Positions 1,450 through 23,053 of a stretch of 64,000 nucleotides of DNA are shown here, one piece after another. Under the pieces are notes generated by a model. That model was not told where the DNA came from and searched no databases. It worked only from the letters and a program-made list of their open reading frames with translations. The DNA comes from Octopus vulgaris (Eukaryota), in assembly GCA_951406725.2 (NCBI GenBank), contig OX597816.1, forward strand, positions 23,064,001 to 23,128,000. The letters run 5' to 3'. Made by a program: the position numbers and the translations under genes. Numbering within the stretch: the stretch's first letter is position 1; every line of letters begins with the position of its first letter.

Positions 1450-2649
1450 CTCATATAAAGAATCTTGCAAACCAAATCCCAAAACGAAAGATGACCATTG
1501 TTTTAGACAAAATCGATTGAATGATTGTCAGATTGAAAAAAATATTTTGTCCATTTCCTTGGTAATTATGCCAGAAATAGTTTCCGTGATCTTGAAGCTG
1601 ATCTCTACCAGCATTTCCTAAATAACCTTGTGGTGTTGATGTCATCCACTGAATTTGCCATATCGTTAACTCATTTCTACACCGATTTTCACCTCGAGGT
1701 TATGGCAAATTGTGTATATAAATACAGGCTCAAATAGGTTTGAGGATTTAATCAGCCTTAGCAAAGACCGGGCCCGTCATCCCCCAGTCCCCGTCGGATG
1801 GTATCTTCAATCCAATCCGCTTCGGTGCCTGGAGGTAACCCACATACCCAGGCTCGTATTAATTTTCTTCCACAATATGGCGGGAGGAACAGAATTTCCT
1901 TGCCTTCTAAAGGCTGACTCGCAAACTGGCGAGCCTTTTTCCCGTTCTCAAATAGCAACCATACGGTTGCATGTTTGACGCCACGGGATATATATTTTAA
2001 AGAGGACAAATATTCTTTAAGTTCATTTTTTATGACTTGTTTTGGGAAGACGGTGATGGAATTAAGAACTTTAGAATAAGTTCTAAGTACCATCGTCTTC
2101 TCCTCCATATCTTTTAACCACTGCTTAGGCGGGTTAATTTCCCACTCTAAGACAGAGTTTTTCTTTTTAAGTTCCTTCTCTGCCATGTCAAAAAACAGTT
2201 CAAAAGTAGTTCAAAAGACAGTCTGCCAAAACATTAAACCGAATAAAAATAAAACACAATAAAAGAGGAGGGGAGGAAACTGAAATTAAAGTAATGAAAG
2301 TAATGAACCAAAATTTAGAAAGAAAGAAAAAATAGAAGGGAAAAGTAAAAGAAAAAACTCACAAATAGCACAGACAGGGAATCCTTTGTACAATACTCCA
2401 AAAAGGTAATCCAAAAAGGTAATCCAAATGGCTTATTCTTATTTATCTGGCGAAATACGCCCACCTGAATTTCAAGCAAAAATTCTCAATTCACCGTTAC
2501 GGTGATAAGAACCCAGTATTTTGTTCGCTATAGGGAGCCATAATTGACAATTTTTCTTTTTGTTCTTTTTTTCTATTCATGAAGCCGAAACTCATCTTCT
2601 CACTGTAACAGTCCAGACCAACTTGTGTTGCATTTTGGGTCACCGGAAG
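1450..2649 (-). mobile_element. L1/Tx1-like ORF1-bearing element A (decayed, 3' end unclear)
   Basis: 5' end CTTCCGGTG; ORF 2186-1758 aligns by eye to the ORF at 3976-3086 (PPK...ME.KT, YI.xG...T...F, FLP.Y.GRK, PP..E..W). Confidence 0.55.
1758..2186 (-). pseudogene. LINE ORF1-like (RRM-type) protein fragment, paralogue of 3086-3976
   Basis: 142-aa non-low-complexity ORF sharing several motifs with the neighbouring zinc-knuckle ORF. Confidence 0.6.
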
Positions 2650-2665
2650 TAAGTAAGCACGCTAC

Positions 2666-4110
2666 TTTATTTTATTAAATTTGCTATAAAGGCAATGCAC
2701 AGAGGGAACACTACAACACATGTGGTGACATATAACAATGAAAGAATAAAATAATGAATGAACATAAAAATGCACATGAAGAACAAATTAAAATATGATA
2801 ATATGAATGATATCTGAAAATGATATTATGAACAGTTAGCTACTCACCCCACACTGAGTAACACCGCTCGCTGTCTCTGGGTCCTGAGTCCTTTTTCTCT
2901 TTTCGTCCAATCCTTTTTCCCTTTTCACTGTCACTTAATGATAACATTCTCTCTGTCATGCATTCATAGCCTCTTTCACCGGGAGGGGGGTCTTCTAAAT
3001 TTTGTGGTGTCTGTTCTTTCTTTTTCATTTTTTCTTGAGGGGAAATGGGGTGGGTGGGTTTGGTGTCTGTATGAGGAGGGTGGGTCTAAGTGGGCTTGGG
3101 TGGGATAGGGTTGGACTGGGGTGCCACATCGTACTCAGTGTCTTTTCTTTTTTTTCTGTTTCTCCTTTTGCGCGCTGCAACTTTCCATTCTTCCTCCTTT
3201 TTATCGTTTCCTCCGTATATTTTGTCTTTCTCTCCTTTCTCTTCTGTGCCCGCAACTATATCCTCAGCCATAGTCATTTGCAGAGGGCAGTATGCTCTAA
3301 TGTGGCCCTTTTGGCCACATTTAAAACAACGTGGTACTCTGCCCTCTACACACACCCTCAGCCCGATTTCCCCCAGCGTCACAGTCTCTATCAAGTTCTC
3401 GAGTTGAACCTCCTCCGTCTGAATAATTAACTCGAGCGTCCTTCCTTTCCACCCTCCTTCTTCTGCTTCTGTGGCTTGGAGGACAGCCACCTTCTCCTCG
3501 CTTCCAACAAGGACAGCTGCCGCTACCCAAGCCACTTCTACATCCGGTGGATATGCTTCTATCCTCACCTTAGAAGTTTTTCTTCCCAAGTATGTGGGCA
3601 GAAACACTACCTCCTCCGTTTTCACCGCCACACTCGCCAGCCTCATTGCCTCTTCAGCTGTCCTAAATTGGACGACCATTGTTCCATATCTTTTTCCTTT
3701 CGTGATATATGTAATCTCTTTAGACTTCTCTCTTAGCGCCTTTTCTGTATCCGCTTCCACCTGCTCAGCCTTTTTTCCTTTTAAAGAGAACACCTTATAG
3801 GTGATAGTTTTCCTCTCCATCTTCTCCATAATTCCTTTTGGGGGCGACAGCCTTACGTCCCCTCCCACCTTCTGTAACACCTTGTCATAATTTTTCAGAC
3901 CAGCCAAGTCCAACTCCCTTCGTTTCTTCTCCGTGACCTCTCCAAGACTCCTGGTCTTTTCTAGCACACTGTCCATCGCTACGACCGCCCTCACGAACTC
4001 CTCCTCTGAAATCAACGCTAAGGTCTGAGTACATTTTCTTACAATAGCAACAAAACCGACGTCCGACTCGCACACAAATGACAAACCAAATGCACTATGG
4101 CTAACCGGAA
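2666..4110 (-). mobile_element. ORF1-only non-LTR retroelement B (L1/Tx1-like, HAL1-type)
   Basis: Starts CTTCCGGTT; ORF1 with CCHC knuckle; stop near 2840; ~170-nt 3'UTR ending GCATTGCCTTTATAGCAAATTTAATAAAATAAA; no endonuclease or RT. Confidence 0.65.
3086..3976 (-). CDS. Gag/ORF1-like nucleic-acid-binding protein with CCHC zinc knuckle (probably continues by frameshift to a stop at 2840)
   Basis: CFKCGQKGHIRAYC (C-x2-C-x4-H-x4-C), upstream RRM-like segment, basic C-terminus WKVAARKRRNRKKRK; first ATG at 3976. Confidence 0.7.
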   Translation of the reverse strand: MDSVLEKTRSLGEVTEKKRRELDLAGLKNYDKVLQKVGGDVRLSPPKGIMEKMERKTITYKVFSLKGKKAEQVEADTEKALREKSKEITYITKGKRYGTMVVQFRTAEEAMRLASVAVKTEEVVFLPTYLGRKTSKVRIEAYPPDVEVAWVAAAVLVGSEEKVAVLQATEAEEGGWKGRTLELIIQTEEVQLENLIETVTLGEIGLRVCVEGRVPRCFKCGQKGHIRAYCPLQMTMAEDIVAGTEEKGEKDKIYGGNDKKEEEWKVAARKRRNRKKRKDTEYDVAPQSNPIPPKPT

Positions 4111-4145
4111 GCAAAGCTACTTACCACACAGCCGCTCCTACGCCT
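4111..4145 (-). mobile_element. SINE family A tRNA-like head, interrupted by element B
   Basis: Minus strand AGGCGTAGGAGCGGCTGTGTGGTAAGTAGCTTTGC matches the family A 5' end. Confidence 0.75.
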
Positions 4146-4395
4146 AGTTCAAATTCCGTCGAGGTCGACTCAGCCTGTCATCTTTCAACATCGATAAACA
4201 GAGTACCTGTCGAACGCTGGCGTCGATGTTATTGATTTACTGCATCTTCAGAAATTACTGTCTAAACTGTGAAACCATTATTATCAATTTCTATAATTAT
4301 TTGTGTCTAAGCACTGCTAAATGCAAACTCCAAGATCATAATTTAGAGTATCGGAAGCATAGTGGAGTTCTCATTGTAACTTACTCTCAACTTAG

Positions 4396-4791
4396 TCTTT
4401 TACTTGTTTCAGTCATTTGATTGTGGCCATGCTATCGCACCGCCTATAGACGAGCAAATCGACCCCATGACATATTCTTTTTAAGCCTAGCACTTATTCT
4501 GTCGGTCCCTTATGTCGAACCGCTAAGTTACGCAGACATAAACACACCAGCATCGGTTGTCAAGACATGTTCGGGGGACAAATACAGATACACAAACGTA
4601 TATATGTATATATATATATATATATATACGACGGGCTTCTTTCAGTTTCCGTCTATCAAATCCACTCACAAGGCTTTGGTCGGCCCGAGGCTATAGTAGA
4701 ATACACTTGCTCAAGGTACCACGCAGTGGGACTGAATCCGGAACCATGTGGTTCGTAAGCAAGCTACTTACCACACAGCCACTCCTACGCC
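4396..4791 (-). mobile_element. SINE family A, full-length
   Basis: Reverse complement of the 12541-12950 copy, including A/B-box-like head and GACTGAAACAAGTAAAAGA tail. Confidence 0.85.
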
Positions 4792-5298
4792 TTGTCGATT
4801 TTTTCGAGATATTTGCAATAGCTTTTTATTTAGTATACGCTGTTTAGTATGTTTCTATATAGTGCTACAATTTGTCTTTTCCGTTTAGTACAATTTCGGT
4901 TGCATTGCAATTCAACTTAATCTTTTTGACCGTTTTCCCTTTCCAGTTGCATCTTCTATTTTTCTTATTGCTCTTATTATCACTATTGTTGTTGTTGTTG
5001 TTGTTGTTGTTTGTGTTGTACCTAATGTATTTTGGGCTGTTGTATCATCATAAACAACGCCATCATCGTCATTATGCAATACCTGTTGCTTTATTAAAAA
5101 TATTACGTTACGGACTGTAAATATGAAAGCATTTGCCTGAAGCACAAAGAATATGAACACAGTGCAAAAACGGTACAAAAATACTTGTGCTGAATTGTTA
5201 GAGGAACACAAACCACCAAACCATGCATGTAACCAAGTATGTGCGTGCACACAGACACGCTAATTCAGATACCCACATACTAATATGTGTGTGTGTGT

Positions 5299-20764: not shown

Positions 20765-23053
20765 TGGGAGTTTCAGAGCGTCCTCCCTTCCAAAGTGGAT
20801 CAGTTCAAATTTGTCTTCATTTAGCAACATGTTATTCTTTTCCGCCCATTGGACAACAGCCAGTAGGTCTGACTGAAGGTTTATTCGGTCATCCACGCCA
20901 TTGATGACCTTCTGGAGCTTGGAGTCATCAGCGAAGGTTCTGATGTTACTGTGTTTGATGGTATCATTTATGTAGATGATAAAGAGAAGTGGGCCCAACA
21001 CAGTGCCTTGTGGGACACCACTGCTGACTTTGGCTGGGCTGGATTTGACTCCTTCGACTACAACATGTTGGGTTCTGTTAGACAGGAAGCACTTGATCCA
21101 CTGCAGCAGCTTTCCAGTGACACCAATATTGGACAGCTTTCTCAGAAGGATCTTATGATCAACCCTGTCAAAGGCCTTGCTGAAATCAAGGTAGATGACA
21201 TCAGTGTTGGAACCTTCTCCCAAGGCTCTCAAAATGTCATCAAAATGATGCAGTAGCTGCGTCAGGCAATCTCTCCCATTACGGAATCCATGCTGGTTGG
21301 GGTTCAGCATATTATGACTCTCAAGGAAGTGAGTCATACGCGATCTCAGCACCCTCTCAAATACCTTGATGATATGAGAGGTGAGTGAGATTGGACGGTA
21401 ATTCACGGCAAGCGATTTGTTTCCTTTTTTGAAAATTGGGACAACAGACTGGGATAGAAGGTCCTCTGGTATATATCCTGCATCCAGTGAGTTCCGCCAC
21501 AGATTGGCTAGAGGGGGTGCAAGTTGGTTTTGACACATCTTCAAGACACAAGCAGGGAACCTATCGGGACCTACTGCTGAATTATGCTTCATTTCCTTTA
21601 TTGCTGCTAAGACATCAGGAGCGCCAAATGTTATGTCCGATAAAGTGTATTGGGGAGTAACATCACTGATACAGCCCAGATCAGTCATATCAGGATTGCT
21701 GAAAATAGAGCAATATTGTTTCTGCAATATCTCTCCCATGGTTTTGGCATTGTCTTGAAGAGTACCATTTTCATCAATCAGAGGGCCAACAGTAGAACCA
21801 GTGACTCTGTGTTTTTTTGCAAATGAAAAGAACACTTTGGGATTGAGTTTGATCTTCTCAATGGCCCAGGCCTCTTCAGCTCTTCGCTGACTATTGATGA
21901 TAGACATAATGTTGTTTTGGAGTTTATGTTTTTTAATCTCTAGCGACGAGATGGCAGTCAGGTTGGTGTGTTGCTGTTGACAGTATTTCAGCATGTTGAT
22001 CTTTTTGTTGATTCTTTTAATTTTCCTTATGAGAGATCTTCTATTTCTAGGGATTCGACACTTAGATTTGTTTGCAGATCTTAATGGGGTGTGTCTTGCA
22101 CATATGTTCATGATGGTGTCTACAAGTGACTGCCAGGACTTTTTAATGTTAGTGGGTGTGTATGTGTGCGTGAAGGACCAATCGACTTGTGCAAGATCAT
22201 TATTGATCGCTTCCCAGTTTGCATTGTGGAAATCCATAGTGTCAAATGGATGAACAGGAGGGATGACATTTGTTTTGCATTTTGGCCAGTGAAATCTCAG
22301 ATCACAGAGAACCATGTCATGGTCGGAGAGTAGGGTTTTCTCCACTGCAATATTGTGGATAGTATCAGTGTGATTGCTGAAAATTAAGTCTAAGACGTTT
22401 TTGTGACATCTCGTTGGTTCGAGTACCAGTTGGGACAAGAAGTCATCCATGAAGTCAAGAAGCGATTCCACTGCCTCCCTGTCAGGGGTTGAGAGAGAAG
22501 AACCTGGCGGCAGACTGTTTGTAGACCAGTCAACCCCGGGAAGGTTGAAGTCTCCCATCATTAAAATGTTGTCAGGTTGACACTGCTGAATGAAACACTT
22601 TATGCTGTTGAGGCATTCCTTGAAGCATGGTAGGGGCGTTTGGGGTGGTCTGTAGAGCCCAACTACTGTTAAGTTGTTGGTTTGACTGAATACAGCGACT
22701 GCTTCGCAGTATCCATTCGAAAATGTGTTCATGGCTTCTGTTGAGAATGAATCATGGACATAAATGGCAGTCCCACCCTTTCTTCTGCCAGCACGATCAG
22801 CACGAATGGTTTTGAAATTTTTAACTTTCACCTCGGCTTCCAAGTGGAGGTCACTAAGATGGGTTTCAGTGAGGACGAAGAAAGGGATGTGGTTTGGATG
22901 GGCCTCGACCCAGTCCTCCAGGAATCTTATCTTCCATTTTTGTGTATTGGTGGAAGGGCTGATGCCTTGGGCATTAAGCAGAAATGCTGAGGCGAGAGTG
23001 GATGGTTTTAATTGTTTTGGTGATTTGTTTATTTGATTGCTTTTTAATGGCAT
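20657..23053 (-). CDS. LINE ORF2: APE endonuclease plus reverse transcriptase (frameshift near 20764)
   Basis: LTETHL, YRPP, MGDFNLP, LDLIF, SDHD (APE); NYRPISLTS, QHGFR, LDFSKAFD, PQGTVLGPLLF, FADD (RT). Confidence 0.93.
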   Translation of the reverse strand: MPLKSNQINKSPKQLKPSTLASAFLLNAQGISPSTNTQKWKIRFLEDWVEAHPNHIPFFVLTETHLSDLHLEAEVKVKNFKTIRADRAGRRKGGTAIYVHDSFSTEAMNTFSNGYCEAVAVFSQTNNLTVVGLYRPPQTPLPCFKECLNSIKCFIQQCQPDNILMMGDFNLPGVDWSTNSLPPGSSLSTPDREAVESLLDFMDDFLSQLVLEPTRCHKNVLDLIFSNHTDTIHNIAVEKTLLSDHDMVLCDLRFHWPKCKTNVIPPVHPFDTMDFHNANWEAINNDLAQVDWSFTHTYTPTNIKKSWQSLVDTIMNICARHTPLRSANKSKCRIPRNRRSLIRKIKRINKKINMLKYCQQQHTNLTAISSLEIKKHKLQNNIMSIINSQRRAEEAWAIEKIKLNPKVFFSFAKKHRVTGSTVGPLIDENGTLQDNAKTMGEILQKQYCSIFSNPDMTDLGCISDVTPQYTLSDITFGAPDVLAAIKEMKHNSAVGPDRFPACVLKMCQNQLAPPLANLWRNSLDAGYIPEDLLSQSVVPIFKKGNKSLAVNYRPISLTSHIIKVFERVLRSRMTHFLESHNMLNPNQHGFRNGRDCLTQLLHHFDDILRALGEGSNTDVIYLDFSKAFDRVDHKILLRKLSNIGVTGKLLQWIKCFLSNRTQHVVVEGVKSSPAKVSSGVPQGTVLGPLLFIIYINDTIKHSNIRTFADDSKLQKVINGVDDRINLQSDLLAVVQWAEKNNMLLNEDKFELIHFGREDALKLPFSSFWRNSHGIQQHQRPGSNSGQQHKLGYTYKQQS

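Follow-up and report, generated by a model that had tools for sequence, protein, structure and literature searches.

Two retroelements that carry an ORF1 but no ORF2 lie head to tail in the tRNA-like head of one SINE in the genome of Octopus vulgaris, and the locus raises the question of what directed them to this place and what machinery moved them. The window, i.e., the whole stretch of DNA analysed, comprises 64,000 nucleotides of contig OX597816.1. The reading proposed in the first-pass annotation, that of non-autonomous half-LINE families using an abundant SINE as a landing site, is supported by the present analysis; the insertion spot is common to over a thousand related copies. Very probably, both are non-autonomous ORF1-only elements inserted at one base of the SINE head; their likely source of mobilisation in trans is a 5.45-kb LINE of the L1/Tx1 type, the endonuclease of which is predicted to nick the site.

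Organisation of the locus

The SINE head, CCHC knuckle, hairpin, A-rich tail and second element named in the first-pass annotation were all located in the sequence (Table 1); along the minus strand, the order is SINE head, AAGTAGCTT, element 1, AAGTAGCGTGCTTAC and element 2.

Table 1. Features of the insertion locus and related arrays (window positions unless a contig is given)
Feature	Position	Strand	Remark
SINE-A 5' head (A-box side of the tRNA-like head)	4123-4146	minus	94% similar to the uninterrupted copy (4761-4795)
Target-site duplication, 5' copy, AAGTAGCTT	4114-4122	minus	
Element 1, full-length decayed ORF1-only retroelement	2668-4113	minus	Family 1, ~1.45 kb; starts with target-like leader
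Element 1 ORF1 (two predicted RRMs and CCHC)	2840-4034	minus	RRMs from the fold of the family alignment
CCHC zinc knuckle codons, element 1	3287-3328	minus	Pfam zf-CCHC
3' terminal hairpin of element 1	2681-2695	minus	One mismatch; common to the autonomous LINE
Element 1 A-rich tail	2668-2680	minus	Without poly(A)
Middle junction AAGTAGCGTGCTTAC	2653-2667	minus	3' duplication copy fused with element 2 leader
Element 2, 5' 880 bases of the second ORF1-only family	1770-2652	minus	Whole element ~2.05 kb
Element 2 ORF1, N-terminal remnant	1761-2186	minus	
Adjacent uninterrupted SINE-A copy	4385-4792	minus	Reference for the empty site (4761-4769)
Sister-group arrays	G000:C2:138771245-138793096, C17:67745026-67759693, C14:37736388-37753520		L171-L176, L281-L310

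The ORF1 of element 1 is decayed: eight bases are lost near its start relative to the sister copy L006, producing a frameshift there, and the frame is open from 3976 to 3089, with a stop at 3086-3088. The Pfam zf-CCHC match to its knuckle (E=5e-4) narrowly misses the cut-off. The ORF2 of the candidate helper described below has no match in 1450-4145, in line with the claim that neither EN nor RT lies between ORF1 and tail. The final tail bases of element 1 spell AATAAA together with the first two bases of the target. The hairpin had been given as TTGC/GCAA; it is present, but the stem of the family is TGCC/GGCA, TTGC/GCAA being its outer part. The closest sisters of element 1 are 93% and 88% identical to it.

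Element 2 follows directly and carries, as claimed, a diverged paralogue of the element 1 ORF1 (26% identity), but its extent had to be shortened: 39 sister places match it over the first 856-881 bases only, as far as window position 1770. The sisters run on through a knuckle to a tail at ~2.05 kb and then into a SINE body, so positions 1450-1769 are outside element 2, and the knuckle, tail and SINE body have been lost here. A different dispersed repeat, in which 54 bp are duplicated in tandem near 1235-1342, occupies 1300-1490; a fragment of a second SINE, on the opposite strand, occupies 4147-4235, directly before the SINE-A head; and an unrelated LINE has left an RT fragment (27% identity to the helper ORF2) on the minus strand at 20954-21811.

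The DNA search for family 1 yielded 51 matches, which came from 40 of the 527 candidates; the best 30 loci were analysed, with the window copy counted and two pairs (L026/L027 and L029/L030) being near duplicates. ORF2 inside the other copies, which would have made the window copy a one-off deletion, was found in 0/30 family-1 loci and 0/30 family-2 loci; both are multi-copy families with an ORF1 and a 3' tail and without an ORF2.

Specificity for one base of the SINE head

Copies chosen by element sequence alone have non-random flanks, as expected for a specific landing site. Among the best 30 loci of family 1, the 3' junction lies at AAG[TA]AGCTTGCT in 27/27 copies reaching the 3' end, and the 5' junction lies at the same site in 22 of the 24 copies reaching the 5' end. 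The copies of the candidate helper LINE, chosen by the ORF2 C-terminus without reference to the target, end at this site in 30/30 of the best cases (29 found by script, and L110, with one extra base, by eye); a third ORF1-only family (P0007) is at the site with both ends in 30/30 copies; and, for family 2, 29/30 5' junctions are at the site and the 3' junction was found in 22/30.

Across the 2.8-Gb genome, a 16-mer joining tail and target occurs 1,704 times, versus once for the reversed control; of 90 matches inspected, 3 are part of a different repeat. The empty target 28-mer has at least 71,914 occurrences (~1e-5 of strand positions), 6,644 of them being A-type sites (AAGAAGCTT); the chance of hitting the site is thus ~1e-5 per insertion, counted from the exact sites, and the occupancy of sites is estimated at ~0.8% (1,704 x 31/90). 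Two tail+target junctions lie inverted, 70 bases apart, at L250/L251 (G000:C1:111116887-111116972).

The insertion point is located between the A and B boxes of the tRNA-like head. Three tRNA-derived octopus SINEs are cited in PMC4758252. The SINE-A head aligns with the tRNA-Lys-type genes of the genome (z ~5-7, with tRNAs of 30 loci representing few isotypes); ARAGORN and Rfam gave no tRNA call on it. Real tRNA genes were considered as the target and rejected, the motif being absent, by eye, among these tRNAs of 30 loci and few isotypes, and 80/90 junctions continuing into a SINE body (L047 was assigned by eye).

The 15-mer at the middle junction had been taken as a likely target-site duplication. 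In the full-length P0007 copies, variants at site position 7 are repeated on the 5' side in 2/3 cases, those at position 11 in 2/6 and those at position 13 in 3/10, which indicates that the true duplication spans ~7-10 bp, the rest being an element-encoded leader that rebuilds the site. Copies truncated at the 5' end (52-720 bases) have duplications of ~6-15 bp and a fixed 3' junction.

An autonomous LINE as the candidate helper

An autonomous partner with both ORF1 and ORF2, the search for which had been suggested as a check, is present as a 5.45-kb LINE at the same base. The copy L062 comprises 5,455 bp between two target copies and contains an ORF1 frame of 488 codons and an ORF2 frame of 1,150 codons with the domains Exo_endo_phos, RVT_1 and zf-RVT; its best solved relative is human L1 ORF2p (E=7e-67), with endonuclease and RT motifs aligned. 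An open frame of at least 1140 aa was found in 13 of the 150 listed copies. Judging by the domain order (APE endonuclease, RT and C-terminal zinc finger) and the closeness to L1, the helper is assigned, at the level of the group, to L1/Tx1; a close relative of its RT occurs in Argonauta hians, and no named Tx1 protein is among the matches listed for the RT. The common site and hairpin point to this LINE as the likely helper of the ORF1-only elements. Older helper subfamilies exist besides the young one; given these, the young helper may differ from the family that moved element 1.

ORF1 proteins of the passengers

On contig C1, 60 target junctions were classified, drawn from the 100 that were listed out of 1,704: 31 belong to ORF1-only elements, 5 are ORF2-ended and 24 are truncated, deleted or unrelated. 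The fold predicted for ORF1 from a 24-row alignment (pLDDT 82) contains two RRM-like domains and the knuckle, and this modelled architecture matches Type I ORF1 (RRM and CCHC), described for non-mammalian Tx1-type elements (PMC5203782). A Transposase_22-type ORF1, that of mammalian HAL1 proper, was not found, zf-CCHC being the sole Pfam domain beside the tandem RRM fold. The only two relatives of ORF1 in the protein collection are both Octopus bimaculoides proteins. Atlas look-alikes of P0001 residues 40-240 include ZCCHC3 RNA-binding domains (score 0.90), which may serve as a lead.

The passenger ORF1 is under purifying selection: dN/dS between subfamilies is 0.15-0.32 for family 1 and 0.08-0.25 for the element 2 clade, with dS partly near saturation, and 0.17-0.78 among close copies, in rows selected for open frames. 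In the tree, the ORF1 clades of elements 1 and 2 are far apart and both distant from the helper ORF1. Family 1 ORF1 clusters with other ORF1-only elements (support 93/99 in a tree without outgroup; 41-47% identity) that are not at the SINE-A site, a point that tells against the reading proposed above. Some members of this sister group are inserted in the second SINE's head (L176, L281 and L282, with CAGAAACGT duplicated), others are at unrelated sites, and most copies are scattered or in long arrays. The group is young, with open frames, and its arrays have up to ~13 units at ~1.76 kb spacing, with variable 5' ends.

The young ORF1-only family, represented by L112, is present over its full length in runs X16, X17 and X19, which carry three other organism labels. 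In one run, presumed to be RNA, a contig of 2.08 kb covers a young ORF1-only element; this is not evidence of transcription.

The 3' hairpin and the tail motif

A 4-bp terminal hairpin is found in all families and covaries across 44 distinct tails. It is 87.5% paired, with a covariation of 0.304 versus 0.160 for shuffled tails (0/500 shuffles; slid controls <=0.081), the hairpin having been picked by eye on the very sequences used for scoring.

The tails also contain a motif that corresponds to the type of the site. Among 79 junctions outside family 1, AGCTA occurs at 41 T-type sites and AGCTT at 15 A-type sites, with 0 discordant cases, and neither motif is clear in the remaining 23; five junctions were left out of the count, three belonging to another repeat (L245, L268 and L272) and two being doubtful (L264 and L280). 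All 56/56 motif-bearing junctions thus match the site type (Fisher p=6e-14, a value too small, since the copies are related), and this covariation counts against endonuclease recognition as the sole explanation. In family 1, the antisense motif was found in 0/24 and 0/6 tails, the best antisense match being 5-7 of 9; this family passes from A-type sites (AAGAAG) in older branches to T-type sites (AAGTAG) in younger ones. Since family 1 lacks the motif and yet is on target in 27/27 copies, the motif is real, but an RNA guide is not required.

The upstream part of the family 1 tail is common to the sister group, while its end is the helper-type hairpin, which suggests that the choice of the helper, and hence of the site, is made by the terminal hairpin. 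The site appears to track the helper and the hairpin, and not the ORF1 lineage or the tail guide motif. The tail of the second SINE also resembles the 3' end of these LINEs, and this SINE was seen once in the SINE-A site, as a 420-bp double copy with AAGAAGCTTGC duplicated (11 bp; L043, G000:C1:28885139-28888154); it is probably mobilised by this LINE group.

Proposed mechanism and alternative explanations

The junctions offer a suggestion for the course of insertion, including the position of the nick and the mobilisation in trans. The ORF2 protein of the helper would bind the 3' hairpin of the passenger RNA, and its endonuclease would nick the bottom strand between T and A of GGT/AAG; reverse transcription would then be primed at the AAATA tail, which, because there is no poly(A), perhaps anneals through a few read-through target bases, and the top strand would be cut ~7-12 nt downstream. 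The passengers retain their own RNA-binding ORF1, presumably for packaging their RNA in cis. Since the element starts with a target-like leader, an insertion would rebuild the site, and elements could stack head to tail.

Nearly every copy is flanked by the same SINE sequence, as would be expected if SINE head, ORF1 cargo and SINE body were one composite copied whole, without targeting; this explanation is refuted and retains hardly any credibility. Mean identity is 99.4% and 98.6% over the last 600 element bases but 93.6% and 89.7% over the 120 SINE bases behind them, and none of the near-identical element pairs (>=99.5%; 166 and 87 pairs) has SINE bodies that are 99% alike; the flanking SINEs being far more divergent than the elements, the insertions are independent. 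Several SINE subtypes carry them, the duplications of the truncated copies vary, and many different cargos occupy the single base. The elements have thus inserted independently at one nucleotide, with target duplication. It is also quite unlikely that the ORF1-only families each derive from a LINE of their own by a recent internal deletion, with the low dN/dS dating from autonomy. HAL1 arose several times in mammals (PMC5753468), and the copies examined are part of the genome's total; against this, a helper-type ORF1 lies upstream in 9/10 loci with an endonuclease start (in the tenth, L184, the element is decayed and distant), and the ORF1-only clades stand apart from the helper ORF1 in the tree, with 26-39% identity. 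At 39% identity, the passenger ORF1 is homologous to that of the helper.

Re-use of the rebuilt site has a competitor in template jumping, by which a tandem pair would arise in one event, a leader-derived cDNA end mimicking the nicked target and priming a second RNA; this seems somewhat improbable as the general source of tandem pairs. Another element follows 7/87 junctions (L047 added by eye), about ten times the occupancy of ~0.8%, so stacking exceeds the expectation from plain re-use; moreover, in one family 5/30 copies are directly preceded by another element, and the two elements in the window differ little in age (~92-93% to their closest sisters). However, one array supplies three of the seven stacked junctions, and in L010 and L013 younger copies stand in front of older A-type elements, an order that fits sequential insertion. 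At L045-L048, L075, L076, L187 and L188, two to four different families, the autonomous LINE among them, are combined in arrays within one SINE head. As for the choice of the site, the endonuclease may be aided by RNA, the 3'UTR motif (AAGCTAC for AAGTAGCTT sites, AAGCTTC for AAGAAGCTT sites) pairing either with the top strand of the target or with target bases read through into the RNA; such assistance is put forward tentatively, as a possibility somewhat short of an even chance. It would account for the complete agreement of motif and site with the motif at two different positions in autonomous and ORF1-only tails, for the 0/60 young motif-bearing copies at A-type sites, which make up 6,644 of the 71,914 empty ones, and for a motif-less clade having A-type junctions in 2/9 copies; the on-target family 1 and the 23/79 other junctions without a clear motif speak against it, and age correlates with both site type and motif. 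A broader scenario is rather doubtful: an octopus LINE lineage would parasitise the commonest SINE, being partly RNA-aimed by a target-complementary tail motif that pairs with the site and switched with the SINE sequence in at least two lineages, and family 1, with its ORF1 kin to the second-SINE elements, would have been re-aimed by acquiring only the 30-nt terminal hairpin of the helper. If true, this would be a natural experiment in which protein-guided and RNA-assisted choice of the target during target-primed retrotransposition can be told apart. Under the preferred reading, that of passengers brought by the helper to a predicted nick site, family 1 at this locus serves as a motif-less control for the tail-guide idea.

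Comparison with known systems

Both LINEs that target transposons and half-LINEs are already known, and general lists of targets include "other TEs" (PMC8869645). The annotation of Octopus vulgaris reports 13 recently active L1-Tx1 families with 421 insertions and 2,288,644 bp (PMC13282606), which corresponds to a mean length of 5.4 kb, equal to that of the helper; in a term search of the main text of that paper, the words target, nested and non-autonomous were absent. No SINE-targeting LINE or Tx1 half-LINE was found in the literature searched, nor was a SINE target combined with a half-LINE radiation, or a description of this octopus system, although Repbase, Dfam, subscription papers and supplements may contain such families; the cases presented in PMC5786205 and PMC5753468 include no Tx1-derived ORF1-only LINE.

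The half-LINEs described with an ORF1 are HAL1 (L1), HeT-A (Jockey) and Ag-Sponge (CR1) (PMC5786205, PMC5753468). The octopus elements resemble them in consisting of a 5' end, an ORF1 and a 3' tail without ORF2, in maintaining ORF1 and in needing an autonomous partner. They differ in being site-specific in a SINE, in lacking a poly(A) tail, in forming several deep ORF1-only lineages that outnumber the helper, and in having a Type I ORF1 (RRM and CCHC) instead of Transposase_22.

Should the proposed system hold, the usual relation of LINE and SINE would be reversed: the SINE would offer the LINE a safe harbour that renews itself, with over 70,000 sites still free, and the insertion would split the SINE promoter. 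A young intact helper, near-exact single-base specificity and short passengers make a tractable model for asking how APE endonucleases deal with a drifting target, why ORF1 is retained in cis and whether RNA-DNA pairing contributes to target choice; for work on cephalopods, the system may also supply a tool for site-specific insertion and a set of markers.

Among the closest counterparts are the Tx1-clade LINEs that insert into transposons, such as Tx1 in Tx1D of Xenopus, Tx1-Mar in Mariner-N4_AMi, Tx1-9_AMi in Harbinger, and Tx1-8_Crp and Tx1-4_AMi in LTR elements (PMC4494074). As there, an APE-type LINE of the L1/Tx1 group inserts at one fixed position within a different mobile element, the same site is occupied by passengers (SINEU-3 in the Tx1 system), and elements stack in tandem around the duplication (PMC4494074). 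Unlike in those cases, the octopus LINE inserts into the tRNA-like head of a SINE, at a point between the A and B boxes, its targets were young and present in large numbers, in place of an old, disrupted transposon, and the passengers are protein-coding ORF1-only elements.
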